IMG/VR virus record: IMGVR_UViG_3300010234_000001
Coordinates: 50,612-114,611 of that record
Direction: 5' to 3' (one strand)
Length of the DNA stretch: 64,000 nt
Source: a virus
Lineage: Duplodnaviria; Heunggongvirae; Uroviricota; Caudoviricetes
This document shows, one piece after another, positions 515 to 17,569 of the stretch. Both the position numbers and the translations under genes were made by a program. A model generated the notes under the pieces. The model had not been told where the DNA came from. It worked only from the letters and a program-made list of their open reading frames with translations, and made no database searches. Every line of letters starts with the position of its first letter. Position 1 is the stretch's first letter.

Positions 515-1077
515 GCTTTGAGTCCCTTTCCTTAGTGGAAAACCCTTATCCCATATCATGGGTCCAGAGTCAAGCGCTAAATCGCAATTAAAATGCACTT
601 ATTTTGCTCTCATGGGTCATTCCCTTATATCGTCAAATAAAACGCGTTTCTATTAAATTGACCCTCTTTTTTATCAATGATATCAATGGGTTACAAAACC
701 GTTTTTTTAGGGGTTTATGGGGGAATTGGGCTTATGACATTTTTGTGCACCCTCATACCAGAATATACCCTAGAATCGGCTCTAGGCGTCATACAGCGGG
801 GTTAGACCATTCCTAGGCGTCATGCCTAGCCTAGCGCTTCCAACGCGTGTCACAAGCCACGACAAGCGCTAGCAAGGCAATACAGAGAATCCATGCGCTA
901 GCGCTCAAAACCAAAGCGCCATGGTCAGGACGTATCCAATCAAGAGTCCTGCCGTGATTGATGTTTTCATGATATGCGTTTCCTTGCGTTCTAAGCGCCA
1001 TACGGCGGAGTTGTCGGGGTTAGGCTAGGCGAGTAACTAGGAATGATTGATTGCCCTTCCTAGCCCTTCCCTGCGCT

Positions 1078-1986
1078 CTAGATGATTTCGCCTTTCGTGG
1101 GGCGATTAAAGAATCCAAACTTAGGGTCATCCCGCGACGGCTGAATCTTCGCATCAAATGCAACCCGCGTACCCTTGGAATCTTCGCCAACGTCCAATCC
1201 GGCCGGGACAGTCCCGTAAACCTTGAATCCGTCATCCGAACGTACCAGCATTTTCAGCATGGTTCCGTATGCGGTATCCTTCCACTTGACGGACAGAATC
1301 TCACCAGTGATACGGATTCGCTTGTCAGTTACAGGAACGGGATTCGCCGCATCCGATTCGGCTTGCCTTGCCGCCTCAATAGCGGGGCGATTCTCAATAT
1401 CCTTCACAAGCTTTGCCATGAAAGCGAATTGCTTGTCGGACAGATCGCCATAAGCAATAAGCTTCCCGACCATATCGCGAATCACTTCATACGCGAAAGA
1501 AATATCCATGTATCCATTGCGCTTTTCCTGCGGAATCTCGGCATACGGCATTTCAAAAACATTCCAAGCGCCGGACAATCCCATATCATCCAGAATCGCC
1601 TTAGCCTTAGCCTTTCCGGCTTTCGCCTTCCTTGCGTCGTTTACCGCATTGCGAAACGCAGTCCCGTCATAATCGGATGCGAGATTTTCCGCGCAATCCT
1701 GTCCCGTGCGAATATACGTATTCGACGGCTTATGGTGAAACAGGACGGTATAAATAGCGTTGACGTTGCCGCAAATGTGGCAGTTGCCGCCATGCGCATG
1801 GCGCGAATAGGTTCCGCCAGTGCACTTCATATGATCGGCAATCCGCGCACGATTCCACGCGACCATTGCCACGTCACCCATATCCTCGATTTTCATAACC
1901 TCTTCGCCAACGTAGTCATAATCGGCGGGGTTAATGACGCTGGGGCGATGCACATCCGTGCGAAGCGTGCGAATCAGGTTTTCCAT
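1078..1986 (-). CDS. Hypothetical phage protein, 302 aa (CxxC/Cys motifs, possible C-terminal OB-like fold)
   Basis: Long ORF with RBS and repeat unit upstream; HCHICG...GQDCA motif. Confidence 0.75.
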   Translation of the reverse strand: MENLIRTLRTDVHRPSVINPADYDYVGEEVMKIEDMGDVAMVAWNRARIADHMKCTGGTYSRHAHGGNCHICGNVNAIYTVLFHHKPSNTYIRTGQDCAENLASDYDGTAFRNAVNDARKAKAGKAKAKAILDDMGLSGAWNVFEMPYAEIPQEKRNGYMDISFAYEVIRDMVGKLIAYGDLSDKQFAFMAKLVKDIENRPAIEAARQAESDAANPVPVTDKRIRITGEILSVKWKDTAYGTMLKMLVRSDDGFKVYGTVPAGLDVGEDSKGTRVAFDAKIQPSRDDPKFGFFNRPTKGEII

Positions 1987-2047
1987 GGGTCCGTTTTCCT
2001 TTTCCGTTTCAAACTGTCCGAGAGTAATACAGGACAGTCAACCCCGC

Positions 2048-2206
2048 TTAGGCGAAATCTTTTCCATCAATTTTGAAGCCGCGCATATAATCGCGATTGA
2101 AACGAATCCAGTTAATAGCTTCCATGCGATCCCGCGCTTCATACGTAACCGGCAAATCGACCTTTCCAGTTTCGCGATTGTAAGCATTTGCAGTAACAGT
2201 GATCAT
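2048..2206 (-). CDS. Hypothetical protein, 52 aa (MITVTANAYNRETGK...), not in ORF track
   Basis: Directly downstream of promoter 2224-2272 and a GGAAAGG RBS. Confidence 0.6.
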   Translation of the reverse strand: MITVTANAYNRETGKVDLPVTYEARDRMEAINWIRFNRDYMRGFKIDGKDFA

Positions 2207-2265
2207 TGATTTGCCTTTCCTATTCCCAAACTGTCCGGATGTTTTACACTACGGAATCCGGCATG

Positions 2266-2517
2266 TCAACCCCAATGGATAGGGGACAGCACCTTTATTT
2301 TCCCGTCAACCCGATTTGCGACATATGCCGGGACATTATAGCATGTGCCGAGTCGCGTTGCGTATGCCTTAGTATGCGAATATTCCGCCTCGCCAATCTG
2401 GAATCCGTTCGCATCCATTTTCTGGATTGTCCACATTTTGATTTCGGAATTGAACCAAACATCCACATGGTGCAACGGTCCAACCGTATCAAACGTCTTA
2501 ACATTCAGAATCCGCAT
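2266..2517 (-). CDS. Hypothetical protein, 83 aa
   Basis: Follows palindromic promoter 2537-2589 and RBS. Confidence 0.65.
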   Translation of the reverse strand: MRILNVKTFDTVGPLHHVDVWFNSEIKMWTIQKMDANGFQIGEAEYSHTKAYATRLGTCYNVPAYVANRVDGKIKVLSPIHWG

Positions 2518-2588
2518 AGCCCTGATTTCCTTTTCTATTCCCGATATGGTCCAGTCTTTTTATATGACCATATCGGGAATGTCAACCC

Positions 2589-3188
2589 CTACAGGTCACC
2601 TTTTGCGTGATTTTTCCCTTTCGTCGTGATCGCGCCACGCTTGTTGAGGTAACCGCCATCGATCAAACTAGCCTTAGCGGCTTCCCACTGGACACGCGTC
2701 GGAATGGTCGCACCTTCCCGATACCGAAGCGTATTGCAAGCCATAACGAATCTATCGCGCCCGTTATGGGACGATTTCAGGCTACGAGCGGCAATCAAAA
2801 CGATCCGCTCAATTTCGGAAAAATGAACGGTTTCGGGAAGGCGAATCGCATTGATCGAATCCGGATGCACGTATATCGTGATTCCGACATCCTTACCCTG
2901 AAAAATGGTATGGCGCACAATGGCATAATTCGGAACCATGGTAAAGGAACGATCCGCCTTTGGATCGCGCATTGCGAGCATACCGGATTCGGTATCGTCC
3001 AGTGACACGGATTCGCCCGTTGTCATATTCACAACGCGGAACGTGTCGCGGCTTCCGCCATTCCATGCGCCATGGTCAAAAGGAATCTGAAAATTGCCGG
3101 TTACGGCAATCTTGAACTTGCGGCCGGTATAGAAATCCGGAATCAGAATCGACGGAACGTCATTCCGTTCAACGTGAATATAATTCAT
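2589..3188 (-). CDS. Hypothetical protein, about 199 aa (start re-set to MNYIHVERN)
   Basis: ATG 3188 follows promoter 3208-3257 and RBS; the track start runs through the promoter. Confidence 0.7.
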   Translation of the reverse strand: MNYIHVERNDVPSILIPDFYTGRKFKIAVTGNFQIPFDHGAWNGGSRDTFRVVNMTTGESVSLDDTESGMLAMRDPKADRSFTMVPNYAIVRHTIFQGKDVGITIYVHPDSINAIRLPETVHFSEIERIVLIAARSLKSSHNGRDRFVMACNTLRYREGATIPTRVQWEAAKASLIDGGYLNKRGAITTKGKNHAKGDL

Positions 3189-3228
3189 TTGACTTGTTCC
3201 TTTCGATTTCCCAAACTGTCCGAGTGTT

Positions 3229-3579
3229 TTACACGACGGAATCCGGAAAGTCAACCCGTTGTTTTGAGATAATGTCGGATTCTTTGAATGCAACCTGACA
3301 TTGACCCTTGATTATGTTTTCCACCTCATATTCAAAAAAGTGGTATCCATGCCGTGTTAATGCGCGCAATTCGAATCGATTAAACCAACGATTCATCTGG
3401 CGAATCGAGCCGAATCCGAATCGCATATCTTGAGTTATGAAATTGATTCCGTCCCTTTCCGGCAATGGGTGGCGTAGCTGGCTTTGGTGATCGCCATGCA
3501 AATTATAATATCCAAGACGATTCGGCCCGTTATACGGACCATAACCGTTTTTATCCTCGATTCGGTATAACCGCGCCAT
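3229..3579 (-). CDS. Hypothetical phage protein, 116 aa
   Basis: Coupled to upstream ORF (TAATG overlap); YRIE..G.GPY pattern typical of small phage proteins. Confidence 0.7.
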   Translation of the reverse strand: MARLYRIEDKNGYGPYNGPNRLGYYNLHGDHQSQLRHPLPERDGINFITQDMRFGFGSIRQMNRWFNRFELRALTRHGYHFFEYEVENIIKGQCQVAFKESDIISKQRVDFPDSVV

Positions 3580-3848
3580 TATTCGTCGCCTAGCCCTACG
3601 TCATCCAGCCATGCCAGCCGGTGACCATCCGCCCAATGATCGAAATCCGTCGAACCGGCCGGATAAGGGTTATCCGTTTTTCCGGCAAAATACGCGTCAT
3701 ACCCATAATTGCGCACATCATCGGCCCGAATCATGCGGTAATGCGCCAACGCCTTATCCTTATCCGTAGTGGAGAGAACCGCCTTGTCGCCGCGCCAAAC
3801 CTGATAGGCGTAAGGGTAGCAAGAATCAATTACAATGCGGGAATTCAT
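3579..3848 (-). CDS. Hypothetical protein, 89 aa
   Basis: Start re-set to MNSRIVID after repeat 3875-3920. Confidence 0.65.
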   Translation of the reverse strand: MNSRIVIDSCYPYAYQVWRGDKAVLSTTDKDKALAHYRMIRADDVRNYGYDAYFAGKTDNPYPAGSTDFDHWADGHRLAWLDDVGLGDE

Positions 3849-3919
3849 GGGTCCGTTTTCCTTTCCGGTCCGTCTTTCGATGATTGTGTTATCCCACACT
3901 GTCAGGCGAGAGTCAACCC

Positions 3920-4324
3920 CTATTCATCCGAATAATCGGAATCTTCATAAGTGGCCAAATCGGCCGCAAGGGAATCCGACACGCCAGTTTCGAAAGCTTC
4001 CCACAAATCATCCGCGACCGGATCGTTATCGCCCCTGTCGCCATCGTAACCGGCCGAATTGAATTCGTGCGCAGTGAATTCAAAGGGCGAATAGCTACGC
4101 GAATTGGATTCCGCCTCATAACAAAGGCTGGCATGCACTTCGCGCGCATCGTCAACCGTTTCAACCGTAACGCGGCCATCCGAATCCGTCCAATAGGTTT
4201 CACCCATGGACGGGACATTGTGGCAAGCAATCCCGTGCGCATGGTTCCAACCCGAGCGATAAGCATCGGCCAGCACGTCATTGGATGCGAATTCGGCGGG
4301 AATCGTGCTAGGAAAATTAGGCAT
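3920..4324 (-). CDS. Hypothetical acidic protein, 134 aa
   Basis: Start MPNFPST after repeat 4350-4395; stop abuts the next repeat. Confidence 0.7.
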   Translation of the reverse strand: MPNFPSTIPAEFASNDVLADAYRSGWNHAHGIACHNVPSMGETYWTDSDGRVTVETVDDAREVHASLCYEAESNSRSYSPFEFTAHEFNSAGYDGDRGDNDPVADDLWEAFETGVSDSLAADLATYEDSDYSDE

Positions 4325-4376
4325 AATCAAGAGTCCTTTTCTGTCCGTCTTTCGATGATTGAAATATGCCACACTG

Positions 4377-4544
4377 TCAGGCGAGAGTCAACCCCTCATA
4401 TGGGCCAATCCGCAAAGCATTGCAGAAACCCGAAAAACAGAAACGCGGATATCGAATCCCATTATCATTTTCCCACACATCCGCATCATATTCCGAATCG
4501 AAAACATAGTAAACATATCCATCCGTATGATAGACAATCCGCAT
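4377..4544 (-). CDS. Hypothetical protein, 55 aa
   Basis: Start MRIVYH after repeat 4567-4609; stop lies inside the next repeat. Confidence 0.55.
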   Translation of the reverse strand: MRIVYHTDGYVYYVFDSEYDADVWENDNGIRYPRFCFSGFCNALRIGPYEGLTLA

Positions 4545-4613
4545 GTGTTTTCCCTTCCCTTGTTTCCGATGATTGGAATATGCCACACTGTCAGGCGAGA
4601 GTCAACCCCTCAT

Positions 4614-4793
4614 CTAAGGATATTTGATTTTATCGGCCGGGACAGCAAAAGACGTGCGCGCGCCAACCGTATCGAAAGACACGGTATAAACGATCCGGAA
4701 TCCGTCAAACGACGTTTTGTCCCGGATCGTAACTGGACGATTAACCCCGTAGGACGAATCCGTAACGATAACGGTATCACCAATATTGAACAT
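4614..4793 (-). CDS. Hypothetical SH3/KOW-like protein, 59 aa (MFNIGDTVIV...), not in ORF track
   Basis: After repeat 4815-4858 and RBS; F.IGD.V motif. Confidence 0.6.
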   Translation of the reverse strand: MFNIGDTVIVTDSSYGVNRPVTIRDKTSFDGFRIVYTVSFDTVGARTSFAVPADKIKYP

Positions 4794-4852
4794 GATTTGC
4801 GTTCCTTTTCCGCGTTTCGATGATTGGACTATCCCACACTATGCCGGGACTG

Positions 4853-5104
4853 TCAACCTATTTCTGCAATTTCTTCCGTCCAGTGTTCCGCAACCTCTTC
4901 CCAATTGACATTTTCCATTTCGTCGCGGGACATGTCGCACGTTCCTTCCGGGAACAACCCGCACGCGAATTCTTTTGCTTCCCACTCGTCAACCGACAGG
5001 CGACGCTTCAAAAAATTAAACTTCGCGTCATAGCTCCATTCATCATTGTCAATGTGAAGCATGATATTCCACGTTTCGTAATTTGTCCAGCCGTTATAAG
5101 CCAT
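4853..5104 (-). CDS. Conserved phage hypothetical protein (YNGWTNYETW family), 83 aa
   Basis: Recognisable N-terminal motif; repeat 5126-5171 upstream. Confidence 0.75.
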   Translation of the reverse strand: MAYNGWTNYETWNIMLHIDNDEWSYDAKFNFLKRRLSVDEWEAKEFACGLFPEGTCDMSRDEMENVNWEEVAEHWTEEIAEIG

Positions 5105-5170
5105 GCGTCCGTTTCCTTTTCTGTCTTTCGATGATTGGAATATGCCACACTGTCAGGCGAGAGTCAACCC

Positions 5171-5389
5171 CTATTCCGAATAATATTTGGAATAAAGCGA
5201 AGCGATAAAATCCGCGTCTTCATGCGCTACCGCGTCAACCGACGCAATGGAAATCATGTCAACAGTAGAGTTTTCCGCCTTGATGCGCTTTGCGGCCTTT
5301 TCCGCGACGGTCCGATTCGTCATGATGAAAACCGCGTTAGGCATGGTTTTGAACGCAACATAAACCCGCATGAGAACCTTATCAGTCAT
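5171..5389 (-). CDS. Hypothetical protein, 72 aa
   Basis: Lies between repeats 5414-5453 and 5126-5171. Confidence 0.65.
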   Translation of the reverse strand: MTDKVLMRVYVAFKTMPNAVFIMTNRTVAEKAAKRIKAENSTVDMISIASVDAVAHEDADFIASLYSKYYSE

Positions 5390-5599
5390 TTGATATTTCC
5401 TTTCCGTTGCTTCCGATGATTAGAATATGCCACACTGTCAGACGAAAGTCAACAGGGAAAATGAAAAAAGATTCGATCCGTTTTAAGCGCCGTTGACGGG
5501 GTTTCCCAATAGGGCGGACAACCCCTAGGCCATTGGCCGGAACCCCGTCAACGGGCACGACAAGCGCTTAAACGGACAGGAAAAGCGCTTGCCTTATTG

Positions 5600-5836
5600 C
5601 TAGTCCGTTACCGGAACGGCCGGGACGGGCAGAATCCGAAGATTCCCGCAACCCTCCGCAACAATCTTGTTCAATTCGCGGGACTGACTCGCGTTTGCGT
5701 TGACAACCTCGCCGGAAATCACGTCAACAGTCTGCCACTTGCCAGCCTTGCCAGCCTTGGAAGGGTAATCACGGCCGATTGCCTTGTAACCCCACGAATA
5801 AGCCTTTCCGCCGATTGTCGCATACCAGTTAGTCAT
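5600..5836 (-). CDS. Hypothetical protein, 78 aa
   Basis: Start MTNWYAT after repeat 5857-5902. Confidence 0.6.
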   Translation of the reverse strand: MTNWYATIGGKAYSWGYKAIGRDYPSKAGKAGKWQTVDVISGEVVNANASQSRELNKIVAEGCGNLRILPVPAVPVTD

Positions 5837-5901
5837 TTTTTGCATTCCTTTCCGCGTTTCGATGATTGTGTTATGCCACACTGTCAGGCGAGAGTCAACC
5901 C

Positions 5902-6108
5902 CTAACCTTGAACAATTACCGAATATTTGATGTCATCCGGCAAAATTTCTTCAACAAGCTTACGCGCCGCCGTGTCAATCCCGTTTGTCAGCATGTCGCA
6001 AGTTTCCGGCCAATGGGAATCTTCCCACGATTCAGCGGTATTCGGAACCTTGGAAGATTCCACCCTAACCGTTACCGTGATGTGCTTCAAAATATCCGTG
6101 TCAGTCAT
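5902..6108 (-). CDS. Hypothetical protein, 68 aa
   Basis: After repeat 6121-6168; stop abuts the next repeat. Confidence 0.6.
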   Translation of the reverse strand: MTDTDILKHITVTVRVESSKVPNTAESWEDSHWPETCDMLTNGIDTAARKLVEEILPDDIKYSVIVQG

Positions 6109-6297
6109 GCTTGTTTCCTTTCCGATTTGATGCGCAAGTTATCGCACGCGGCGCGACAAGAGTCAAGCGCTAATTTGCGAAATCCTGATATATTTCATAT
6201 ATCGTTTCGGTTGTGGCGTCTATCCTTTCCCAATTAGGGGTTAAGTAGTATGCGGCAACCGCGCCGCATACTATCCAAAAAATAAATCGATCCGTTG

Positions 6298-6540
6298 TCA
6301 CTTTGCCATGCCAGTGTCAACAAAACCGTCCGCAATCACAACGCGAGTTCCGCCGCTACCTTCGTATGGCATGCGCACAACCTCAAACTTATCGCGGCCG
6401 GTAAACTCGTCATAAAAGAGGCGAGTCTGAATCTTCCCCTGCCAGCTTTGTGCTTCGGTAACGATATCAGTCTTTTTCGTACCAAGACGCGAGGCAACCG
6501 ACTTGCCGCTACCCTGAATCGTTCCGCGAAAATGAGCCAT
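6298..6540 (-). CDS. Conserved phage hypothetical protein, 80 aa (MAHFRGTIQG...SRLG)
   Basis: After repeat 6566-6610 and RBS. Confidence 0.7.
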   Translation of the reverse strand: MAHFRGTIQGSGKSVASRLGTKKTDIVTEAQSWQGKIQTRLFYDEFTGRDKFEVVRMPYEGSGGTRVVIADGFVDTGMAK

Positions 6541-6626
6541 GTCTGTTTTCCTTTCGGGTTGTCTGTTTCGATGATTGGAATATAGCAAGGGTTGACCGGA
6601 TTGTCAACCCTTTTTTTTTCACTGTT

Positions 6627-6923
6627 TTACCAGTACCATTCTTCGGGCAATTCCAAGCCAACCGGAATCAGGAACACGTCACCATTCTGGTAAACAGTGT
6701 ATTCGATTCCGGTTTTCGGCATGGTAATGACCGCGTTATTCAACACGGAATCCCACGCTTCCCAATACCACTCGCCATCCGGACCGGCCTCAAGCGTAGC
6801 CCAATCCGAATCAGACAAGCCCGACACGCAATCGCGCGAAACCTCTTCCGCGAAGTTTTGCGGAATGAAAACGCCACGATTGGAGTCGAAAAGAATCTCA
6901 ATATCGTTTTCAGTGTAAGCCAT
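6627..6923 (-). CDS. Conserved phage hypothetical protein, 98 aa (LFDSNRGVFIPQNFA)
   Basis: After repeat 6950-6995. Confidence 0.7.
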   Translation of the reverse strand: MAYTENDIEILFDSNRGVFIPQNFAEEVSRDCVSGLSDSDWATLEAGPDGEWYWEAWDSVLNNAVITMPKTGIEYTVYQNGDVFLIPVGLELPEEWYW

Positions 6924-6987
6924 GAGTCCGTTTCCTTTCGGGTTGTCCGTTTCGATGATTGGACTATGCCATACTATGGCGGGACTG

Positions 6988-7185
6988 TCAACCCCTATAA
7001 CCAAACATTTCCGCAATGGCAATTTCGCCCGGTGTCAATCGGCGATAGCTGGCGAATTCTTCCGCACATTTGCGGATTTCCGCGCCGGAAATTGCGGAAC
7101 ACATTTGACGTTCGGTTGCGGTATGGCAAAGCGCCAAGTCCGCCAGATGCGCCTCATGCAATTGCTTAATGTTCCAAGCTTTCAT
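6988..7185 (-). CDS. Hypothetical protein, 65 aa
   Basis: After repeat 7205-7250. Confidence 0.6.
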   Translation of the reverse strand: MKAWNIKQLHEAHLADLALCHTATERQMCSAISGAEIRKCAEEFASYRRLTPGEIAIAEMFGYRG

Positions 7186-7254
7186 GTCCGTTTACCTTTC
7201 TTCGTTTCGATGATTGTGTTATGCCATACTCAAAGCGGCATGTCAACCCCTATT

Positions 7255-7530
7255 TTAGCAAATGATCGTGCCGATTTTGTATGATTCGCCATCGTCGCAA
7301 ATCTGAATCACGACGCCAGAAAAGAATGAATCGCCCTTGAATCCATGCCAGCCGGGAAACGAATTGGTATATTCGAATTCGGACATGTGATACCACGATC
7401 CGCGATACTTGAAAAAACCGTCCGTTGCCTCATCGGGGCTAAGCCAATCGAATTCGGATTTCATGACATCGGCCGGAACATCAAGCCAATACTTGAATTC
7501 ATGCCACTTGTTATCCGTCGTGGTAATCAT
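7255..7530 (-). CDS. Conserved phage hypothetical protein, 91 aa (FFKYRGSWYHMSEF...W.G...DSFFSG)
   Basis: After repeat 7558-7598. Confidence 0.7.
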   Translation of the reverse strand: MITTTDNKWHEFKYWLDVPADVMKSEFDWLSPDEATDGFFKYRGSWYHMSEFEYTNSFPGWHGFKGDSFFSGVVIQICDDGESYKIGTIIC

Positions 7531-7572
7531 GTGATTTTGTCCCTTCCTGTCCGCCCGTTCGATGATTTGAAT

Positions 7573-7839
7573 CTAGCGCATTAAATCCGGATTGTCAATC
7601 GCTTTATTGAGGCAATGGCGAATGAAATCCTTTTCCAGCAACGCGCCGTGCACAACGCTAATCCGATCCATGCCGGATTCAAACTTGGCAAACTTGGCAT
7701 TGAAAAGCACCTTGCGAACCTTGATAGCGTCCGCCCGGTCAATGCCGCCAAGCTCCATCAAAACCTCGTCAAAATTGCGATTCGCGTTGTCAATGCGATC
7801 AGCAAAAATCTTTGCAGTATTCTTGATTGCGTCCGTCAT
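7573..7839 (-). CDS. Hypothetical protein, 88 aa
   Basis: After repeat 7861-7906. Confidence 0.6.
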   Translation of the reverse strand: MTDAIKNTAKIFADRIDNANRNFDEVLMELGGIDRADAIKVRKVLFNAKFAKFESGMDRISVVHGALLEKDFIRHCLNKAIDNPDLMR

Positions 7840-7922
7840 TTGTTATGAATCCCTGTCCGGTTTCGATGATTGGAATTTAGCAAGGGTTGACCGGATTGTC
7901 AACCCCTTTTTTTCATTTTTTC

Positions 7923-9101: not shown

Positions 9102-9157
9102 GATTGAGTCCTTTCCGTGTTTCGATGATTGGAATATTGCACGTTTTGATTCGCGTG

Positions 9158-10151: not shown

Positions 10152-10225
10152 GATTGAGTCCTTTTCTGTCCGTCTTTCGATGGTCCGGAGCCTACTAGGC
10201 TCCGGACCGATTGTCAAGCGGTTTT

Positions 10226-10396
10226 TTATCGCGTGGAAATCCACCGATTAACGCGCGACTCCGGATGCGTATCGTTCATAAACTTGGCGTGGTCCAGAAG
10301 AAACGCGTTGACATTGTAACCCGCCTTTGTAACGCGTTCCTTAATTTCCGTAATGTTAAGGTCGCTCTCACGATTCGACTTATATTCGTAAGACAT
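10226..10396 (-). CDS. Hypothetical protein, 56 aa, not in ORF track
   Basis: After repeat 10413-10455 and an AGGAAA RBS. Confidence 0.55.
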   Translation of the reverse strand: MSYEYKSNRESDLNITEIKERVTKAGYNVNAFLLDHAKFMNDTHPESRVNRWISTR

Positions 10397-10433
10397 TTGA
10401 TTTCCTTTCTTGTTTCGATGATTTGGTTATAGC

Positions 10434-10661
10434 CTAACGATTCGCCTTTGTCAAGCTATTATTTCGGACTTGTTCCAATGCATCCGCCATAGTGGAACGA
10501 TAGCCTAGAATCTTCCAACGTTGCCGCCCGTTGACGGTTGTGTAAGGCTCCACCTTGGCAAACATTGAAATCCAAGGCTCTTCCGTAATCAGGTAAGCGT
10601 TAAGCGCTTCCACGGCTGATATTTCGGACGTAAAACCGGAATCTACAATGATTTCCACCAT
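10434..10661 (-). CDS. Hypothetical protein, about 75 aa
   Basis: Third gene of the 11009-11051 unit; ATG lies just after the previous stop. Confidence 0.55.
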   Translation of the reverse strand: MVEIIVDSGFTSEISAVEALNAYLITEEPWISMFAKVEPYTTVNGRQRWKILGYRSTMADALEQVRNNSLTKANR

Positions 10662-10665
10662 AGCA

Positions 10666-10878
10666 TTAACAATAAAGTTCGTTAGCGTCAACCTTATAGT
10701 AACGCCCGACCGTCATGTTGCTCCGCATGTCTTTAATTGAGGCAAAATCGTTTTCGTCTGGCATGCTGAATCCGAGTGAATTCAATTCCGCTAGCATTCC
10801 TTCATATGAATCGAATGACGAAACCGAATCACGCTCGACTCCGTCATCCCAAAATGTCATGATAACAACCCAATGCAT
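10666..10878 (-). CDS. Hypothetical protein, 70 aa
   Basis: Start MHWVVIM immediately after the ArfA-like stop. Confidence 0.55.
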   Translation of the reverse strand: MHWVVIMTFWDDGVERDSVSSFDSYEGMLAELNSLGFSMPDENDFASIKDMRSNMTVGRYYKVDANELYC

Positions 10879-10879
10879 C

Positions 10880-10987
10880 TTACCAATCCTTTCGCTTACG
10901 ATTGTAAGAACCCTTCCCCTTGCGAGGCTTGATTTTCTTCGGCCGATACACGGCCGTCCGAACCATCTTGGCAATCGGATTTTTCAT
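10880..10987 (-). CDS. arfA: Minimal alternative ribosome rescue factor A (ArfA)-like peptide, 35 aa
   Basis: MKNPIAKMVRTAVYRPKKIKPRKGKGSYNRKRKDW aligns without gaps to the E. coli ArfA core [29 protein letters not shown] (as remembered); GGGAG RBS; own promoter 11009-11051. Confidence 0.75.
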   Translation of the reverse strand: MKNPIAKMVRTAVYRPKKIKPRKGKGSYNRKRKDW

Positions 10988-11081
10988 GTCTGAATCTCCC
11001 TGTCCGCGTTTCGATGATTCGGTTATAGCCTAACGATTCGCCCTTGTCAAGCACTAATAATACGTGGTTTTTATCGAATCA

Positions 11082-11381
11082 TTAAAAAAAAAGGTCGTCG
11101 TCCATTTCATATTCTTCATCCGTAAAAAAATGCTTATCCCATGCGTGAATCATGCCGAGTCCCATGGAATCCGAATGCATTGCGCCACCATGCAGCGCAG
11201 AAAAGCGGCCATCTTCGGCAATCCGCCAGATCACACTTTCCCAATCCGAATCGGACTTCACAACGATTCCAATTCCATCAAAGAAAAACCGGCCATGATA
11301 ATTTGGACGAACTTCGATATTAATATCGAGCGCCATATTAATCAGGAAGTCAAGAAATTCACTTCTATTAACCTTGTCCAT
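11082..11381 (-). CDS. Hypothetical acidic protein, 99 aa
   Basis: RBS present; DSMG motif seen in small phage proteins. Confidence 0.65.
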   Translation of the reverse strand: MDKVNRSEFLDFLINMALDINIEVRPNYHGRFFFDGIGIVVKSDSDWESVIWRIAEDGRFSALHGGAMHSDSMGLGMIHAWDKHFFTDEEYEMDDDLFF

Positions 11382-11383
11382 GT

Positions 11384-11560
11384 TTAGTTCCTTTCAATCA
11401 GAGTAAGATACCACGGGTCATAGTATCCGTCAACCCCCCCAAAAAATACTTTATACTGGATATTTCCATAAATATCCAGCGGATCAACTAGCGTAACAAC
11501 GCCAATAAAACCCGTAGACTCTTCCCGAACAATATCACCAACTTTAAATTCTGTATTCAT
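11384..11560 (-). CDS. Hypothetical SH3/KOW-like protein, 58 aa (MNTEFKVGDIV...), not in ORF track
   Basis: After repeat 11577-11618; FKVGD.V motif. Confidence 0.6.
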   Translation of the reverse strand: MNTEFKVGDIVREESTGFIGVVTLVDPLDIYGNIQYKVFFGGVDGYYDPWYLTLIERN

Positions 11561-11618
11561 CGGTTTCCCTTTCTAGTTCGATGGTCCGGTTATAGCCTAA
11601 CGATTCGCCCTTGTCAAG

Positions 11619-11828
11619 CTACATTTTGATCTTTTGTGAAATCTTTTCATAGGTGTCGCCAAGGGGATACCGGCCGAGAATCAAATCACCATTCGGCAAT
11701 CGAATCCACTTCAACTTACTCCATGTCTCTTTTTCATCCATAAGCATATCGGTTGCAAAATCAATGTTAGCATTGACCGAATACGAAATCACACGCTCGC
11801 CAGAATCATCGTATGTGTAATTTACCAT
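11619..11828 (-). CDS. Hypothetical protein, 69 aa
   Basis: Operonic ORF; stop abuts the next repeat. Confidence 0.55.
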   Translation of the reverse strand: MVNYTYDDSGERVISYSVNANIDFATDMLMDEKETWSKLKWIRLPNGDLILGRYPLGDTYEKISQKIKM

Positions 11829-11831
11829 GGG

Positions 11832-11999
11832 TCAAGACTCATCTTGGCGTGCTAGTTCCCTCTGGCGTTCGGCGATGGCGGCCCAAAGGTGTCTGCGGGC
11901 GAGGGCAGACACAAAGGCGGATTCCCGTTGCCAGAAAGCCGCGTCGGACACGTCGGCTGTCTCTGGCGGCATATCGTCAAGATACTTATTCAAAGTCAT
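11832..11999 (-). CDS. Hypothetical protein, 55 aa, not in ORF track
   Basis: AGGAG RBS; fills the gap between neighbouring genes. Confidence 0.55.
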   Translation of the reverse strand: MTLNKYLDDMPPETADVSDAAFWQRESAFVSALARRHLWAAIAERQRELARQDES

Positions 12000-12022
12000 T
12001 GGATTTGCTCCTATGTTGCAGT

Positions 12023-12292
12023 TTAAACGATTTCAAACATTGGTGCGGTAGCACTGGCGACAACCTCGCCGCCATAGACGTTCCGAATAACCTCAAACTT
12101 GCTGATATGCGGAACATATCCGGACAACTCCGACACGCGCCAGTTAGCACCGCCCGGTTGAAAGGATTTGTTGTAATCCTTCCTAGTCTGTTCCGCCCTA
12201 GCATCGGACGGGCGACCCTTCCACATGATATCATGCCAGCCCTTTTGATCACGATATCGGGCGCGATACTTCGGAGTGATTGACTTACCCAT
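12023..12292 (-). CDS. Hypothetical phage protein, 89 aa
   Basis: Start MGKSITP after repeat 12314-12356. Confidence 0.65.
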   Translation of the reverse strand: MGKSITPKYRARYRDQKGWHDIMWKGRPSDARAEQTRKDYNKSFQPGGANWRVSELSGYVPHISKFEVIRNVYGGEVVASATAPMFEIV

Positions 12293-12356
12293 TGTCCGTT
12301 TTCCTTTCCAACGTTTCGATGGTCCGGTTATAGCCGAACGATTTGGCTTTGTCAAC

Positions 12357-12602
12357 TCATGTTTCCAAGCCGGGCGGACGAATACTAATGACGGTTTCGA
12401 CCAGTTCACTAAGATCATCGCCGACAATGGCCCATGGGCCATTACTTCCATCTTCGGAAGGCAACTCGGAATCGTCATACGGCTCGCATACCATAAACTT
12501 GCCTGAAAATTTTGTGTTGATACGGAAATCCCGTTTCCCTACTATCCATCCGCGATTGCGAATAAATTCAATTTTTTCAGTCAAACTCGCATCGATTTTC
12601 AT
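12357..12602 (-). CDS. Hypothetical protein, 81 aa
   Basis: Start MKIDASL after repeat 12624-12669. Confidence 0.6.
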   Translation of the reverse strand: MKIDASLTEKIEFIRNRGWIVGKRDFRINTKFSGKFMVCEPYDDSELPSEDGSNGPWAIVGDDLSELVETVISIRPPGLET

Positions 12603-12679
12603 GATGTCAGGTTCCTTTCCTCGTTTCGATGGTCTGGAACCTAAACGATTTCGGACCAATTGTCAACCCTTTTTTTGGG

Positions 12680-12883
12680 TTACTCGCCGGAATCCATGAA
12701 GGCTTGAAATCCATCCTCAAGAGCTTGGACAAGCTCCGGATTGTTCCTTACTGATATCTGTAAAGCACCAACAACGCCAATAAAGATTTCCGTGATTGCC
12801 TCATCGTCGCCAATGATATCAAACAACTCCATACCACCGCAAAAAGCATCACGCATAAGACCAACTTTAGTTTCGCTATCCAT
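12680..12883 (-). CDS. Hypothetical protein, 67 aa
   Basis: AGGAG RBS before MDSETK. Confidence 0.6.
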   Translation of the reverse strand: MDSETKVGLMRDAFCGGMELFDIIGDDEAITEIFIGVVGALQISVRNNPELVQALEDGFQAFMDSGE

Positions 12884-12994
12884 AACAAAGTTCTCCTGTT
12901 TTTTTGTGTGAAATTGGACCGGGGACGCCAAACCCCGATAAATCGATTCGCCGCATTCGCTTCGGCATTCCAATTATTGAAGCTATCGCGTCCC

Positions 12995-13210
12995 CTAGCT
13001 GGCTTCAATTGGCTTGATTCGAAGGACAGAGTCCCCGCGAATCGAATTCAGTGAACCGTTCTGACCGAAATTGACCGGCACCTTGGAACCATCGTCAAGA
13101 GTGGCAACCCATGCGCCAGCCTTGCCGCCCTTCGGCCAATCACGCTCAATTGCGACATAACCCCAAGCCGCAGTCTTTGCGGCAATCGCGTTGCGCCACT
13201 CTTTTGCCAT
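12995..13210 (-). CDS. Hypothetical protein, 71 aa
   Basis: GAAGGGA RBS. Confidence 0.55.
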   Translation of the reverse strand: MAKEWRNAIAAKTAAWGYVAIERDWPKGGKAGAWVATLDDGSKVPVNFGQNGSLNSIRGDSVLRIKPIEAS

Positions 13211-13273
13211 GATTATATCCCTTCAAATGTTCGGGTTAAGGCGGGGATTCGTTCCCCGCCTTAACCCATGCCG

Positions 13274-13456
13274 TTACTCGCTCGCGTGCTCCGCGATCTT
13301 CGCAACCAGATCGGCCGAAATCTCGACGCGCGAACCGTCCTTTGCGACCAGCGACACGTTGCCGTTGTCCTCATCCGCAAACACGATGTGCGGGACGAAC
13401 TCCACCGGAACCCGAGTGCCGCGAGTCTTGAAAAGCTGAAGAGTGTTCTCGTTCAT
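13274..13456 (-). CDS. Hypothetical protein, 60 aa
   Basis: After repeat 13495-13538. Confidence 0.55.
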   Translation of the reverse strand: MNENTLQLFKTRGTRVPVEFVPHIVFADEDNGNVSLVAKDGSRVEISADLVAKIAEHASE

Positions 13457-13692
13457 GATATTTTCCTTTCCTGTTATGGGCGGGTCATCCGCCCTTTCGA
13501 TGATTGGAATGTAGCCTAGTCCGATCCGAATGTCAACCGATTTTTTAAGTTTCGTTCGATTTTTTTTCTGACTGGTCCAAGCCGCTTCCCTTTGGCCGGG
13601 GGACGCTTCATCGCCCTTCCGATGATTAGAATATAGGGGAACCCGATTCGAAAGTCAACACCTATTTTCACTTTTTTCGGACAACATGACAT

Positions 13693-13730
13693 AAAAAAAG
13701 AGTGATGCGGGCATAGTCCCGCATCACTCT
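13693..13730 (-). terminator. Rho-independent terminator after ardA
   Basis: 13-bp stem agagtgatgcggg 13699-13711 / cccgcatcactct 13718-13730 plus U-run on the minus strand. Confidence 0.8.
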
Positions 13731-13763
13731 ATGTCTCACCGGTCGGCACAACCTCTAAACACC

Positions 13764-14303
13764 CTACCCCGGCGAGAAAACCCAAGTATAACCATTATAT
13801 TCGTGGAACGTCCAACCATCGTAACTCATATCGCGGGCCATCTTTTCGTAATCGATGTAATTTTCCAGATGTTCCGGAATGTTCGACGTTTCCAGAGTGA
13901 TTTCGCGCGCAAAGTCGGCGGGCCAATTAAACTTGCCATGATACGAATCGCGCGCTTCATCAATATAACCATTTTCATCAATGGCACACTGATATACATC
14001 AATCAACTCGCGGTCATCATCATCCAGATTGATGTAATTATCCCACAAATCCGAATCAATGTGATCAATGATTGGAGTATCGCCATTATTTTTGATGAAG
14101 CTATCCGGAACACCATGGGCGGTCATGATGCGAACGGCAACGTCCCCGTCATGTTCCTCAAGTCCAAGGGATTCGCGAACCTCTTCATTCATATCATCCC
14201 AATCAGTTACGGATTCAAGATCATACCAAACGGACGGCTTGCCTGCATTGATGCGGGTGGCCGTGTTGACACAAATTGCGAATTCGGCGTTTTCCATTTT
14301 CAA
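13764..14303 (-). CDS. ardA: ArdA-like antirestriction (DNA-mimic) protein, 179 aa
   Basis: Highly acidic; C-terminal Y.G.F....DFA.E......IPE.L..YIDYE..ARD motif of ArdA. Confidence 0.8.
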   Translation of the reverse strand: MKMENAEFAICVNTATRINAGKPSVWYDLESVTDWDDMNEEVRESLGLEEHDGDVAVRIMTAHGVPDSFIKNNGDTPIIDHIDSDLWDNYINLDDDDRELIDVYQCAIDENGYIDEARDSYHGKFNWPADFAREITLETSNIPEHLENYIDYEKMARDMSYDGWTFHEYNGYTWVFSPG

Positions 14304-14357
14304 TTCTCCATGTCCGTCGTTTTGATGATTGTGTTATAGCCGAACGAATCCGCATTG

Positions 14358-14582
14358 TCAAGCGGATTTTGCGAATCCGGCCATGTAAGTGATAGCACCA
14401 AACACCACCCAAAGAGGCGCATTGATTCCAAGCGGCTCTAGAATGGAGTAGAAAATCCAACCAAACCCGAGAATCTGAATCACGAATCCATTGACCGCGC
14501 CGATCATGAAACCGGCAATCGGAATGAAAACGACCCTTATCGCCAACTCAATAAAAACTGAAAACCGCGATTCGTCTGCCAT
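14358..14582 (-). CDS. Small membrane protein, 74 aa
   Basis: Hydrophobic helices; after repeat 14605-14647. Confidence 0.6.
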   Translation of the reverse strand: MADESRFSVFIELAIRVVFIPIAGFMIGAVNGFVIQILGFGWIFYSILEPLGINAPLWVVFGAITYMAGFAKSA

Positions 14583-14672
14583 AATTGTGTGTGCTCCATT
14601 TCCGTTTTGATACACACAACATAGGGCAAACGAATCACAATGTCAAGCGAAAAAAAGGAAAAGACCGCAAAA

Positions 14673-14747
14673 TGGTGCACCCTATATCCGGGAATCGAAC
14701 CCGAAAATGAACAGTATAAAAGACTGCCACCATATCCCAAATTATAG
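14673..14747 (-). ncRNA. Degenerate tRNA-Lys(UUU)-like element
   Basis: T-arm tcggg-TTCGATT-cccgg; anticodon arm gcagt-CTTTTAT-actgt; terminal ACCA; D-arm short and acceptor stem irregular. Confidence 0.5.
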
Positions 14748-14794
14748 CATTTTGCGGCCCCCATCGGGGCTTCAACGCGTTTGAAGTTCCCGAA

Positions 14795-15034
14795 TTACTT
14801 GTTGTTGGTATTCGTCTGAATCGACTTGAAGAATCCGCCCAAGAATCCGAGACCGCCACCAATCTGCCATAGCGGCATGCCGGTGATTCCAAACTTGGAC
14901 AGCAACGCGAGGGCCATCCAGTCCAGCCCGAACAGAGCCAAAACCCAACCGCCGAACATTCCGCCAAGCGTGCCGACCAAAGGCAACACCAGCAAAAGCG
15001 CAACGAAACCCACAGCACCAAGAAATACAACCAT
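14795..15034 (-). CDS. Small Gly-rich membrane protein, 79 aa
   Basis: Hydrophobic and Gly-rich; after repeat 15055-15097. Confidence 0.65.
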   Translation of the reverse strand: MVVFLGAVGFVALLLVLPLVGTLGGMFGGWVLALFGLDWMALALLSKFGITGMPLWQIGGGLGFLGGFFKSIQTNTNNK

Positions 15035-15092
15035 TTTATTTTCCTTTCTGTTACTTTCGATAATTGAAACCTAGCACAAGGCTAGTGGCTTG

Positions 15093-15302
15093 TCAAGTGA
15101 AAAATCCGGCAATCGCCGCGACTAGCAGGCTTCCGCCAACCAGAATCGGCCCGACGAATATCGCGTACCCTAGCCATGCCATGCCAGCACCGGGACCGGG
15201 CGGTAGAATTGCGGTTTCCAATCCCGGAACGAACAATACCACGTAAGGAATTGCGAATAACCCGGCTAAAACTAGCGCTATAACTTGTACTGCACGCATC
15301 AC
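15093..15302 (-). CDS. Small membrane protein, 69 aa
   Basis: Two hydrophobic segments; 4-nt start/stop overlap with upstream gene. Confidence 0.6.
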   Translation of the reverse strand: MMRAVQVIALVLAGLFAIPYVVLFVPGLETAILPPGPGAGMAWLGYAIFVGPILVGGSLLVAAIAGFFT

Positions 15303-15709
15303 GAAACTCTTTCCAATTCGCCGCGCAAGATGGCGGAACGGGTTTCCAGTCTAATCAATTCGGCTAGTTTCGCTGCCATTTCTTCGGCTTGTTTCGTTCT
15401 GATCGATTCATTATACACTTCCGTTATACGAGCCAAACGGGTGTCTCTGTTTCGAGAAAAGAATCTCCGAGGTAGATAATGCGTTTCCGTATTAAAACAA
15501 CCGTATGACGATAGGTCTTGAACAATTTGCACATTCCGACCACAATCTCTCCAATCATAAACCCCATGACAAATCGCAATATTGAATATATCACAATAAT
15601 CCGAAAAGACTTTATCAACATGATCATCCGTCAAAAAATCTTCCGGAACGCGTCCGGTCCCATTACAATGCGGGCATTCAATTGTATCGCACATTTTACC
15701 ATCCTTCAT
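15299..15709 (-). CDS. Hypothetical protein with CPHCNGTG zinc-finger-like motif, about 136 aa
   Basis: DnaJ-type CxxCxGxG motif; operonic. Confidence 0.6.
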   Translation of the reverse strand: MKDGKMCDTIECPHCNGTGRVPEDFLTDDHVDKVFSDYCDIFNIAICHGVYDWRDCGRNVQIVQDLSSYGCFNTETHYLPRRFFSRNRDTRLARITEVYNESIRTKQAEEMAAKLAELIRLETRSAILRGELERVS

Positions 15710-15917
15710 CGATAAGGTTTTGCAAGGCATCCAAAGCATTTGGAACGCTTTCGATATCCGGAACGGTTACGGAATTATATTCCGCATGAACAAAATTTGA
15801 AACACTTTCGTTGCAATATTTGACAATCACTTTAGCCTCATTTTCGTGGCTTACCGGAACGATCTTATCGAATCCGGAACGACGAAAATGAATCCTTACT
15901 TTGTAGTACGTGCTCAT
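15696..15917 (-). CDS. Hypothetical protein, 73 aa
   Basis: Overlapping operonic ORF. Confidence 0.55.
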   Translation of the reverse strand: MSTYYKVRIHFRRSGFDKIVPVSHENEAKVIVKYCNESVSNFVHAEYNSVTVPDIESVPNALDALQNLIDEGW

Positions 15918-16123
15918 AGCATGCCATCCTTTCCGCGTGCGAGGAACATGAAAATCTCAATTTCTATGTCCCTTATACCATCACAACGACTGACTGTCAA
16001 GCCATGTTCGTCACAATATTCGAGAATCATATCGGCCATAACCCCGGCGTGTTCCGAGAATGGATGATCGATATTTTCCATCGCTTCCAGCATGGCATTG
16101 CCTTCCCGGTTACGAATTGTCAT
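15914..16123 (-). CDS. Hypothetical protein, up to 69 aa
   Basis: Overlapping operonic ORF. Confidence 0.55.
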   Translation of the reverse strand: MTIRNREGNAMLEAMENIDHPFSEHAGVMADMILEYCDEHGLTVSRCDGIRDIEIEIFMFLARGKDGML

Positions 16124-16277
16124 GGCTCAATTCCTTTACAAGATCATCCGCGCTATACCCTTGCGCAAAGCACATTGCAACCCAATGCCTGTACTCATCG
16201 AAGTTTTCAACAAGATCGACTGGCGGAATGGCGGCATAAACCCGCTCAAAGTCAAGAATTCCGTAAAACTTAACCAT
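16110..16277 (-). CDS. Hypothetical protein, 55 aa, not in ORF track
   Basis: After repeat 16300-16345 and a GGAG RBS. Confidence 0.55.
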   Translation of the reverse strand: MVKFYGILDFERVYAAIPPVDLVENFDEYRHWVAMCFAQGYSADDLVKELSHDNS

Positions 16278-16337
16278 TTTTATGTCTCCGCGTTTGCTGT
16301 TTCGATGATTGGAATATAGCGGAACGGAATCGACTTG

Positions 16338-16922
16338 TCAACCCCGTTCCGCAGGATTATTTTGATCGATCATGTTATTAAGCGACTCGTGAAAGGACTC
16401 ACCTATTTCATACCCATCATCATATACGGCATCAAGGTCAATAGCAGCATCATCCTTCGCCGCCTCTTCCTCGTCTCGTTTCTCCAACCAAGCCGCATAT
16501 TCGTTCAATGGACCACTGTATATTACCGTGGAACCATCCCGCACGGACATATGAATCAGTCGCGTTTCTGTAAGAAAATTGCTCGGACGGTTTCCTTCAA
16601 CCCATAGCTTGTAAGTAAATTCCTCCATTTCCGAATCATCCGGCTTGTTGATGTAAACGTTGCCAGCTTCGGCACCAGCACCAGCACCAGCACCAGCACC
16701 ATTCTTCAAATCGTGAATAAGAACGGCAGCGGCACAATCAATACCATTGACGCACGACATGCGATCATCCGAAATGCCATTGACAAGCTTTCGGTGCGCC
16801 AGACTATTGTAAATATCCATACCTATTCCATCCGGTTGGCCGTCATACTGACGATAAATACTTACAAGCACATCGCCCGAGTAATTATCCTGATAAATGT
16901 GAATGATTGAACGTGTTCCCAT
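16338..16922 (-). CDS. Conserved phage hypothetical protein (MGTRS...IY...DG.P family), 194 aa
   Basis: Recognisable N-terminal motif; contains a (GA)n insert. Confidence 0.7.
   Translation of the reverse strand: MGTRSIIHIYQDNYSGDVLVSIYRQYDGQPDGIGMDIYNSLAHRKLVNGISDDRMSCVNGIDCAAAVLIHDLKNGAGAGAGAGAEAGNVYINKPDDSEMEEFTYKLWVEGNRPSNFLTETRLIHMSVRDGSTVIYSGPLNEYAAWLEKRDEEEAAKDDAAIDLDAVYDDGYEIGESFHESLNNMIDQNNPAERG
16672..16701. repeat. Hexamer tandem repeat (gcacca)x5 encoding an Ala-Gly tract
   Basis: Seen directly. Confidence 0.9.
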
Positions 16923-16943
16923 GATCTAAGTTCCTTTTCGCTC

Positions 16944-17237
16944 TTAACTGATTAGTACGTCATTTCTAGTGACCATACCACGGTTTTTATAATATAGCAA
17001 GACATATTCCCGTATTGCACTCGAAAAAGATTTTGCGGCAAAATCCCGGCCACGATCAATTTCCGATAACAACGCGTTAAGCGTCATGCGTCGGCTCTTG
17101 GCAATCTCTTTAAGGGAGAACCAAAATTCATCTTCCATTGTGACGGATGTTTCACATCCGGCTATTAAGATAGAACGTTTCTTCATACTTCTAGGCATAT
17201 TATTATATAGTGCGCGGGCCAGTGGACTACCATCCAC
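16944..17237 (-). CDS. Ribbon-helix-helix domain protein (RHH_4-like)
   Basis: KRSILIAGCETSVTMEDEFWFSLKEIA...TLNALLSEID...SSAIREYVL matches the alphaproteobacterial RHH_4 pattern. Confidence 0.8.
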   Translation of the reverse strand: MDGSPLARALYNNMPRSMKKRSILIAGCETSVTMEDEFWFSLKEIAKSRRMTLNALLSEIDRGRDFAAKSFSSAIREYVLLYYKNRGMVTRNDVLIS

Positions 17238-17286
17238 CGTTTTAGCTCCCCAATGGGAGACCCGCTTTCCGTTGCCAACGGAATTG

Positions 17287-17487
17287 TTAACCCTTTGCTG
17301 ATGCGTCGTTAATGGTCGCTACGATATTTTGGCGATCACCATCAACGTAAATCTTATTCCCGTTGGTAAATTCAACGATGGACCTGCCCTCATACATTGA
17401 ATTCTCCACGCTGAAAATCGTATTAACGTTGAAGGATTTATAATCACCCTCATCCTTGCCGACTAAAAGAAACGTGACCATGCGCAT
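17287..17487 (-). CDS. Hypothetical protein, about 66 aa (FlbD-like size and pattern)
   Basis: GGGAG RBS after promoter 17525-17553. Confidence 0.55.
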   Translation of the reverse strand: MRMVTFLLVGKDEGDYKSFNVNTIFSVENSMYEGRSIVEFTNGNKIYVDGDRQNIVATINDASAKG

Positions 17488-17533
17488 TACGATTTTCTCC
17501 CGCTGTTTTTTCCGATGTTCATTACCATACACA

Positions 17534-17539
17534 TAAATA
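17534..17539 (+). promoter_or_regulatory. T4-type late promoter TAAATA
   Basis: Upstream of the gp5 N-terminal part; nested in an early promoter spacer. Confidence 0.7.
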
Positions 17540-17569
17540 ATCCGTCTGTCAATAGGGAAAATTGAAAAA

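Follow-up and report, generated by a model that had tools for sequence, protein, structure and literature searches.

The window analysed here is a stretch of 64,000 nucleotides spanning bases 50612-114611 of one virus record (IMGVR_UViG_3300010234_000001), which is 178,611 bp long, has direct terminal repeats and is rated 100% complete; positions below are those of the window unless marked as genome positions. Between 512 and 19684 its minus strand carries an array of 36 related units, each made up of a predicted promoter, a short leader and a ribosome-binding site, which stand before about 55 small early open reading frames (ORFs). From about 19.7 kb onwards the plus strand encodes T4-type late proteins, namely the gp6/7/8 baseplate wedge, large terminase, tail sheath, portal, scaffold and major head protein, and the T4-type genes identified in the window were gp6/7/8, gp17, gp18, gp20 and gp23. 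The major head protein was at most 69% identical to that of any deposited phage, the nearest being from a Pelagibacter phage and a Stenotrophomonas phage. Left of the window the genome encodes a baseplate hub protein (gp26), a tail-tube-like protein, the DNA end protector (gp2) and the tube cap (gp48/54). These genes bound the array on the left, and a split gp5 gene together with gp6/7/8 bounds it on the right. The phage is T4-like, and the array is a hyperplastic early region wedged into its baseplate and tail gene block.

The main features of this layout are the following.

512-19684, minus strand: whole array, 36 units and about 55 small early ORFs
3846-16345, minus strand: array core, 27 units with the start-site box and 2 with a weak box
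17485-17556, minus strand: unit with a degenerate box, divergent from the plus-strand gp5-like gene
17570-18757, plus strand: gp5-like baseplate hub piece (N-terminal part), among early cassettes (phrog_430, 3.1e-07)
19618-19684, minus strand: degenerate-box unit that closes the array on the right, divergent from the plus-strand late genes
19699-20400, plus strand: second gp5-like piece, after which the late baseplate block gp6/7/8 follows (phrog_430, 7.4e-30)

The gp5-like hub/lysozyme protein is split into two ORFs, between which lie three minus-strand early ORFs with a unit of their own (18792-19684). Early cassettes have invaded the late structural operon here.

Every minus-strand TTGAC was listed and the units were aligned in register, a check that the initial annotation of this DNA had proposed; all 36 showed a common anatomy. 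In order, a unit reads TTGAC(A/T), 17 nucleotides (nt), a -10 hexamer of the form nAnnnT/C (CATATT, CATAAC, TATAAC and TAGGTT are examples), 2 nt, the box (CC/AC)AATCATCGAAA(C/G), often (C)GGACAG, then GAAAGGA(A), 5-10 nt and ATG. A -35 and a -10 hexamer separated by a 16-17-nt spacer were present in 36/36 units, with A at the second position of the -10 in 35/36, and GAAAGGA(A) followed by ATG was found in 35/36. The box was present in 27 units, weak in four and absent from five (the unit at 573 and those at 2041-3254). Directly before TTGAC most units had GGGG or GC, and few had A-runs. The units of the core, given from the ATG to 4 nt before the -35, and the boxless units are listed below.

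3846-3920, 4322-4395, 4542-4609, 4791-4860, 5102-5171, 5387-5456, 5834-5902 and 6106-6170 (weak), minus strand: core units
6538-6611, 6921-6995, 7183-7250, 7528-7602, 7837-7906, 8223-8293 and 8636-8709, minus strand: core units
9099-9165, 9455-9526, 10149-10221, 10394-10458, 10985-11054, 11558-11621, 12290-12359 and 12600-12670, minus strand: core units
13454-13540, 13581-13662, 14295-14365, 14580-14650 (weak), 15032-15100 and 16275-16345, minus strand: core units
512-577, 1984-2045, 2204-2273, 2515-2589 and 3186-3258, minus strand: the five boxless units (512-3258)

The initial annotation had described about 35 promoter-leader cassettes, mostly of one or two genes and recurring about every 0.5 kb. 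The 36 units, their spacing (median 416 bp, mean 546 bp) and the ratio of about 55 ORFs to 36 units bear this out. It had also noted stop codons abutting or lying inside the next unit, and these were seen at 3920, 4377, 5171, 5902 and 11619. The array it placed at 540-17553 is real but extends to 19684, with two more degenerate-box units. The single related unit it described holds as a shared form, but the five leftmost units have a different leader. Three of these boxless units (2204-2273, 2515-2589 and 3186-3258) had a -10 of the TAAAAC/TAAAAA type, and the leader CGGACAGTTTGGGAA was common to 2204-2273 and 3186-3258. CTAG-rich non-coding DNA fills positions 540-1080 at this end of the array.

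The repetition is far above chance and is confined to this region. With at most one mismatch, GGGGTTGAC occurred 36 times in the window compared with 10.9 +/- 3.5 times in shuffles, a threefold over-representation, and 26 of these 36 occurrences were on the minus strand below 19.2 kb. Repeat finding returned families of 58-75 nt with up to 12 copies. A profile of the unit matched 30 places within 2273-16345 at E<1e-3; outside the array one place in the genome reached this threshold (genome 48918, just left of the window, E 6e-4), the other outside matches having E>=0.006. About 20 other sigma70-like promoters across the genome had no box. By these analyses the repeat-unit observation is confirmed. 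A second promoter type, also without the box, was observed in three near-identical plus-strand copies at genome 29, 1438 and 163626, with ccctagaggcac before the -35 and cctag in the spacer.

By prediction, each unit is a strong promoter of the host sigma70 type. The predicted +1, taken as 7 nt from the -10, is the A of C-ATCGAAAC, which places the box AATCATCGAAAC at -4 to +8, or up to +13 when GGACA is included. The A1 promoter of phage T7 (NC_001604, +1 at base 498) reads TTGACT, 17 nt, GATACT, 7 nt and then ATCGAGAGGGACA, and this start was identical to the box plus GGACA at 11/13 positions. Its +1 A lies in the same C-ATCGA context, but 8 nt after the -10 compared with 7 nt in the array units. 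The start of T7 A3 (+1 at 750) is ATGAAACGACAG. The match with T7 A1 supports the predicted start site and suggests that the units belong to a very strong promoter type.

The predicted leaders had a median length of 28 nt, were 75% purine against a background of 53%, and were nearly free of U before the Shine-Dalgarno sequence. Their folding was below that of shuffled controls (mean z +0.5). A stem-loop (z below -2) was found in only 8/36 units, those at 16341, 14361, 10454, 10217, 8705, 7902, 6607 and 2585; the spacers were palindromic at 8705 and 10217, and the hairpins at 6607 and 7902 covered the -35. Terminator-like sites numbered 25 compared with 22.6 in shuffles, which is chance level. 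The hairpins at the -35 and the terminator inside the array are as follows.

6587-6612: hairpin containing the -35 of unit 6538-6611, T-run on the plus strand
7884-7905: second, identical -35 hairpin, T-run on the plus strand
13699-13730, minus strand: strong intrinsic terminator in the sense direction, the sole one inside the array

As the two -35 hairpins are followed by 7-9 T on the plus strand, they look terminator-like against antisense transcription entering the early array. With so few terminators in the array, transcription probably continues from upstream units into those downstream. In the leader, A(N)GGA pairs of the CsrA type were noticed. Other readings of the unit were tried and set aside: TGGCA(C/T)-N5 as a sigma54 element, in which the GC of the -12 is missing and many units have no GG, and, by eye, an IHF site and complementarity to the 3' or 5' end of 16S.

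A simple gene call gave about 55 minus-strand ORFs of 31-302 amino acids (aa) in the array. Only one paralogous pair was detected among them. The ORFs with a recognisable relationship are listed here.

1078-1986, minus strand: 302-aa member of phrog_4265, a family of unknown function that is widespread in phages
4853-5104, minus strand: DUF7249 protein (PF23907, 1.6e-09)
5600-5836 and 12995-13210, minus strand: the paralogous ORF pair, 45% identity
10880-10987, minus strand: ArfA-like peptide, 35 aa (PF03889, 1.9e-09, 37.3 bits against a cut-off of 25.5)
13764-14297, minus strand: ArdA-type antirestriction protein, 177 aa (PF07275, 4.6e-10; phrog_2059, 7.7e-12)
16944-17237, minus strand: ribbon-helix-helix (RHH_4) protein (PF13467, 2.2e-20)

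A weak YccV-like match was also present, and the remaining ORFs were ORFans or belonged to PHROGs of unknown function. The ArdA-type protein and the ArfA-like peptide agree with the earlier idea that the cargo serves host takeover and anti-defence. The 35-aa match to ArfA (alternative ribosome-rescue factor A) stands behind a unit of its own, and a phage-encoded minimal ArfA would be unusual. The unit at 13658 serves only a 31-aa, very basic ORF or a non-coding leader, and the next unit follows 122 bp downstream (13516-13662, minus strand). That at 13536 differs from the other units in that its leader contains a GC hairpin. Behind the ORF at 14795-15034, at about 14650-14790 on the minus strand, a -10-like GCTATAAT was seen together with a T-arm of canonical form (CGGG TTCGATT CCCG) and a terminal ACCA. 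This stretch was called by neither ARAGORN nor Rfam, and tRNA and Rfam searches of 1-20 kb returned no match; it could be what is left of a tRNA, or a module resembling one.

Comparison of the units with one another revealed a mosaic. Seven classes of unit share identical or near-identical modules of -35 plus spacer, the largest class having six members, and unrelated ORFs stand behind the members of a class. The 17-nt spacer itself was identical in five units of class S1a and in two to four units of the six other classes, again before unrelated ORFs. Four-gamete quartets were obtained for several pairs of classes among the -35/spacer, -10/discriminator and Shine-Dalgarno-to-ATG modules, and the spacer classes 3916/5898 and 8289/4856 each occurred with both the CATAAC-ACAATC and the (C/G)ATA(T/G)T-CCAATC module. 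A truncated unit was also found.

8895-8930, minus strand: relic half-unit that lacks a -35, its spacer being of the palindromic class, within a non-coding stretch of about 200 nt (repeat family D8)

Because promoter function does not require the spacers to be identical, their identity and the reassortment of modules indicate past recombination between units. The pattern shows repeated exchange between units, with which genes may have moved. The genome encodes UvsY and a RecA/UvsX-type protein, and the complete genome had no PF00589 match to a tyrosine integrase, in line with the earlier statement that the array has no integrase. The initial annotation had further proposed that the repeats act as handles for homologous recombination. 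The mosaic units, the identical spacers and the UvsX/UvsY-type genes favour this indirectly, but the box is functional as well and not merely a homology handle.

We consider it probable that the array is the principal hyperplastic region for early, host-takeover genes in a T4-like phage and that its units serve both as promoters of self-expressing cassettes and as recombination seams, similar to the PeSL elements of other T4-type phages that are compared at the end. Under this explanation the host sigma70 polymerase would start at the A of the predicted start site in each unit. The purine-rich, U-poor and unstructured leader of about 28 nt, together with the strong Shine-Dalgarno sequence, would allow each cassette of one or two genes to be expressed at once and independently, while transcripts from upstream units would probably read through into downstream cassettes. 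The units would be the seams at which UvsX/UvsY-type recombination or gene conversion reshuffles unit modules and, most likely, the intervening genes too.

Several points weigh against this explanation. The promoters and start sites are predictions, and the mosaic pattern could be explained by gene conversion alone, with no movement of genes. A megablast of the 20 kb against phage records gave no match, and a search with the 395-aa gp5-like ORF found no relative in IMG/VR. The nearest relatives of gp6 were 49-51% identical and had no such array upstream of gp6. Among 5.8 billion proteins, the best match of the 302-aa early ORF was 55% identical, and its matches lay in unrelated contexts without units. 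As the nearest relatives are at about 50-55% protein identity, no cassette was seen to have been gained, lost or swapped at the border of a unit. The units also depart from PeSL elements in two respects: a stem-loop occurs in only 8/36 of them, with terminator-like sites at chance level, and the sequence upstream of the -35 is G-rich (GGGG) where that of PeSL elements is AT-rich.

The strongest alternative would be an ordinary early region without special mobility, in which the likeness of the units arises from the needs of promoter and ribosome binding and from local tandem duplication. It would fit the occurrence of the box in unrelated phages, described below, as a box of that kind is kept by function and not by recent copying, and it would also fit the absence of a demonstrated indel at a unit border among relatives of about 50-55% identity. 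However, 17-nt spacers that promoter function does not constrain are identical or near-identical in seven classes before unrelated ORFs, the modules have reassorted with four-gamete quartets, and a truncated relic unit remains at 8895-8930. Taken with these observations, an ordinary early region is unlikely.

The start-site box was also found well beyond this genome. IMG/VR was searched with the pattern TTGAC, 19 nt, A, 7 nt, ATCATCGAAA, and the box stood behind TTGAC at a minimum of 126 sites; among the matches listed, 66 were followed by a Shine-Dalgarno sequence and a start codon and 56 had a good -10. The reversed box gave 34 sites (2 with Shine-Dalgarno sequence and start codon) and a permuted box 62 (11). 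Positions that the pattern left free were also conserved in the matches, namely the T's of the -10, an A at -4, a C at +8 and a depletion of T from +8 to +18. Several of the contigs carried arrays of 3-7 box units at a spacing of about 500 bp and a GC content of 36-55%. These box-array contigs showed no protein similarity to the array genome, and two of them, whose terminase and portal belong to other families, represent another type of phage. Behind -10-like hexamers, AATCATCGAAAC-GGACA also occurred in additional contigs (38-64% GC), with conservation to 17 nt in many. Among cultured phages, the T7-like Paracoccus phage ParKuw1 has the exact box after a CATAAC -10 in a long non-coding early region, and Serratia phage ChibiTotoro has it after a CATAAT -10. 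With a strict 21-base pattern, 22 stretches were found in 2.9 million viral contigs compared with 6 stretches in 596 Gb of bacterial and archaeal genomes. A literature search for the box as a string returned only unrelated primers.

Some details of these matches were observed in passing. The non-coding region of ParKuw1 (record positions 23163-24389) is 1.2 kb long and holds several host-type promoters; the leader behind its box promoter is very like that of unit 6921-6995, and no ORF follows directly. Four IMG/VR contigs of 54% GC carry arrays of 4-7 cassettes in which GAATC stands twice, directly behind the -35 (TTGACGAATCAC) and again where the transcript would start (CGAATCATCGAAAC). Their -10 is weak (CAAAAA or CATAAA), and they are of a different phage type (terminase phrog_38, portal phrog_145). 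The only cargo that recurred among box-bearing arrays was DUF7249, as the second gene in one group of contigs, which is too little to claim transfer of cassettes between arrays.

Recurrence of the box in unrelated phages indicates that it is neither a product of copying within the array nor a general feature of bacterial promoters. Far commoner in viral contigs than in bacterial genomes, it has been kept by function or spread horizontally in many phages. The initial annotation had pointed out that conservation extends past the +1. This conservation is real, but reading it as a recombination handle only does not agree with the same box in unrelated phages, which makes it a functional start-site and leader element and not just a homology handle. 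Its function is most likely that of an optimum for promoter escape or for the leader, and a dedicated factor or a role as exchange adaptor is less likely.

A box that serves as the target of a specific factor would give joint control of the early cassettes, either as a shut-off operator for a phage regulator or as a 5' leader tag for an RNA-binding protein or nuclease. Its confinement to the array, while the other sigma70-like promoters of the genome have none, speaks for such a factor, as do its much higher frequency in viral contigs than in bacterial genomes and its conservation to 17 nt, GGACA included, in many contigs. Nevertheless, the box contigs that were compared (11 from the first scan and 43 extended-box loci) share no proteins with the early ORFs of the window, and the few extended-box contigs that match the array genome do so only in late structural genes, so no shared phage factor is evident. 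Homologues of AsiA and RegB were not found, in a search whose positive controls gave no signal either, and the box had no Rfam match. For T7 A1, with its similar start, we know of no such factor. We therefore regard a specific factor as improbable.

A broader proposal is that AATCATCGAAAC(GGACA) is a phage-specific start and leader element of early promoters, conserved across families and nearly absent from bacterial genomes, with a dedicated function beyond promoter strength. Its carriers would comprise tailed phages (T4-like, T7-like and others) that infect Alpha- and Gammaproteobacteria as well as uncultured phages with a GC content of 36-64%, and T7 A1 would be a diverged member. We put this forward only tentatively. 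The dedicated function could be, for example, that of a 5' tag engaging a conserved host component or of an adaptor that moves cassettes between co-infecting phages.

Finally, gating of early transcription by DNA methylation at GANTC (CcrM) sites, as with GcrA in Alphaproteobacteria, is very improbable: GANTC occurs in 19/36 units compared with about 8 expected (as TTGACTC at the -35 or 9-11 nt into the unit), and a Paracoccus phage has the same box, but GANTC is missing from half of the units, shared ancestry of the unit classes inflates the enrichment, and the box, mostly without GANTC, is also found in a Serratia phage and in low-GC contigs. Many units have a -10 reading GCTATAAC, a type that fits the alphaproteobacterial consensus and would add to the case for methylation. 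The two fixed registers of GANTC, the GCTATAAC-like -10s and the Paracoccus match are hints of an alphaproteobacterial host with CcrM.

Taken as the early region of a T4-like phage with cassettes that express themselves, the array is among the largest and most regular examples of this arrangement. It offers about 55 small candidate host-takeover or anti-defence proteins, each with a defined expression unit, among which ArdA, the ArfA-like peptide and the ribbon-helix-helix protein are recognisable. It also suggests that the idea behind PeSL elements does not require a stem-loop. The most useful new point is the box at the predicted transcript start, which stands behind promoters of unrelated phages and hosts. 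If the box has a function of its own, this would amount to a general rule of phage early gene expression, and the box would be a simple marker of early genes in uncultured phage genomes as well as a compact part for designs of strong expression.

Among known systems, the host-takeover module of Bacillus phage SPO1 groups 24 genes into 12 short operons, whose early promoters and ribosome-binding sites are strong. The array resembles it in its many short early operons with similar strong promoters and ribosome-binding sites, and differs in phage family and host. The T7 A1 and A3 promoters share with the units the TTGAC of the -35 and the 17-nt spacer, and their start at the A of C-ATCGA corresponds to the start predicted for the units. 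In T7, however, three promoters precede one long early operon, no Shine-Dalgarno sequence follows directly behind them, and there is no shuffling of cassettes. An integron is likewise a one-directional array of small, unrelated, promoter-served genes with a repeated element between them. Unlike an integron, the array has neither an integrase nor a folded site of the attC type, and every cassette is served by a promoter of its own where an integron has a common Pc. Any mobility of the array would, in comparison, be by general homologous recombination.

The closest system is that of the PeSL (promoter-early stem-loop) elements, known in the T4-type phages RB49/phi1, PST/T4 and nt-1/KVP40 (Arbiol 2010, PMC2839356; Comeau 2014, PMC4122927). 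In a PeSL the stop codon of the preceding gene comes first, then an AT-rich tract and a sigma70 early promoter, and last a Shine-Dalgarno sequence and an ATG; a stem-loop, which acts as a terminator or attenuator, is placed upstream, on the -35 or the -10, or in the spacer between them (PMC2839356, PMC4122927). PeSLs cluster in hyperplastic regions beside ORFans, and closely related phages differ by indels whose break points lie at PeSLs; inverse PCR revealed mini-circles that had crossed over between the -10 and the Shine-Dalgarno sequence or ATG, and the comparison with integrons was already explicit (PMC2839356, PMC4122927). The array shares with them the hyperplastic location in a T4-like genome, the stop codon at a sigma70-type promoter, the Shine-Dalgarno sequence with its ATG and the small unrelated ORFans. 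Dense tandem arrangement, conservation beyond the needs of a promoter and repeats proposed as sites of homologous recombination are common to both, and the segment in which the mini-circles cross over (-10 to Shine-Dalgarno sequence or ATG) is the same segment that holds the box. The array is larger and denser than the RB49 example (8 PeSLs in about 5 kb), and its 12-17-nt start-site box, common to unrelated phages, sets it apart. Given the scarcity of stem-loops and the G-rich sequence in place of an AT-rich tract, it is PeSL-like rather than a canonical member.

The initial annotation had itself drawn the comparison with PeSL cassettes, which is apt for promoter-leader cassettes in a T4-type phage, and had offered the array as a candidate for an undescribed system. 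Its interpretation was right in kind, but it is not new, as shuffling, mini-circles and the integron comparison had been published for PeSLs (PMC2839356, PMC4122927). In this distant T4-like phage the array is a variant of the PeSL type of early cassettes, large and poor in stem-loops, and the part that may be new is the start-site box, T7 A1-like and found across phages.

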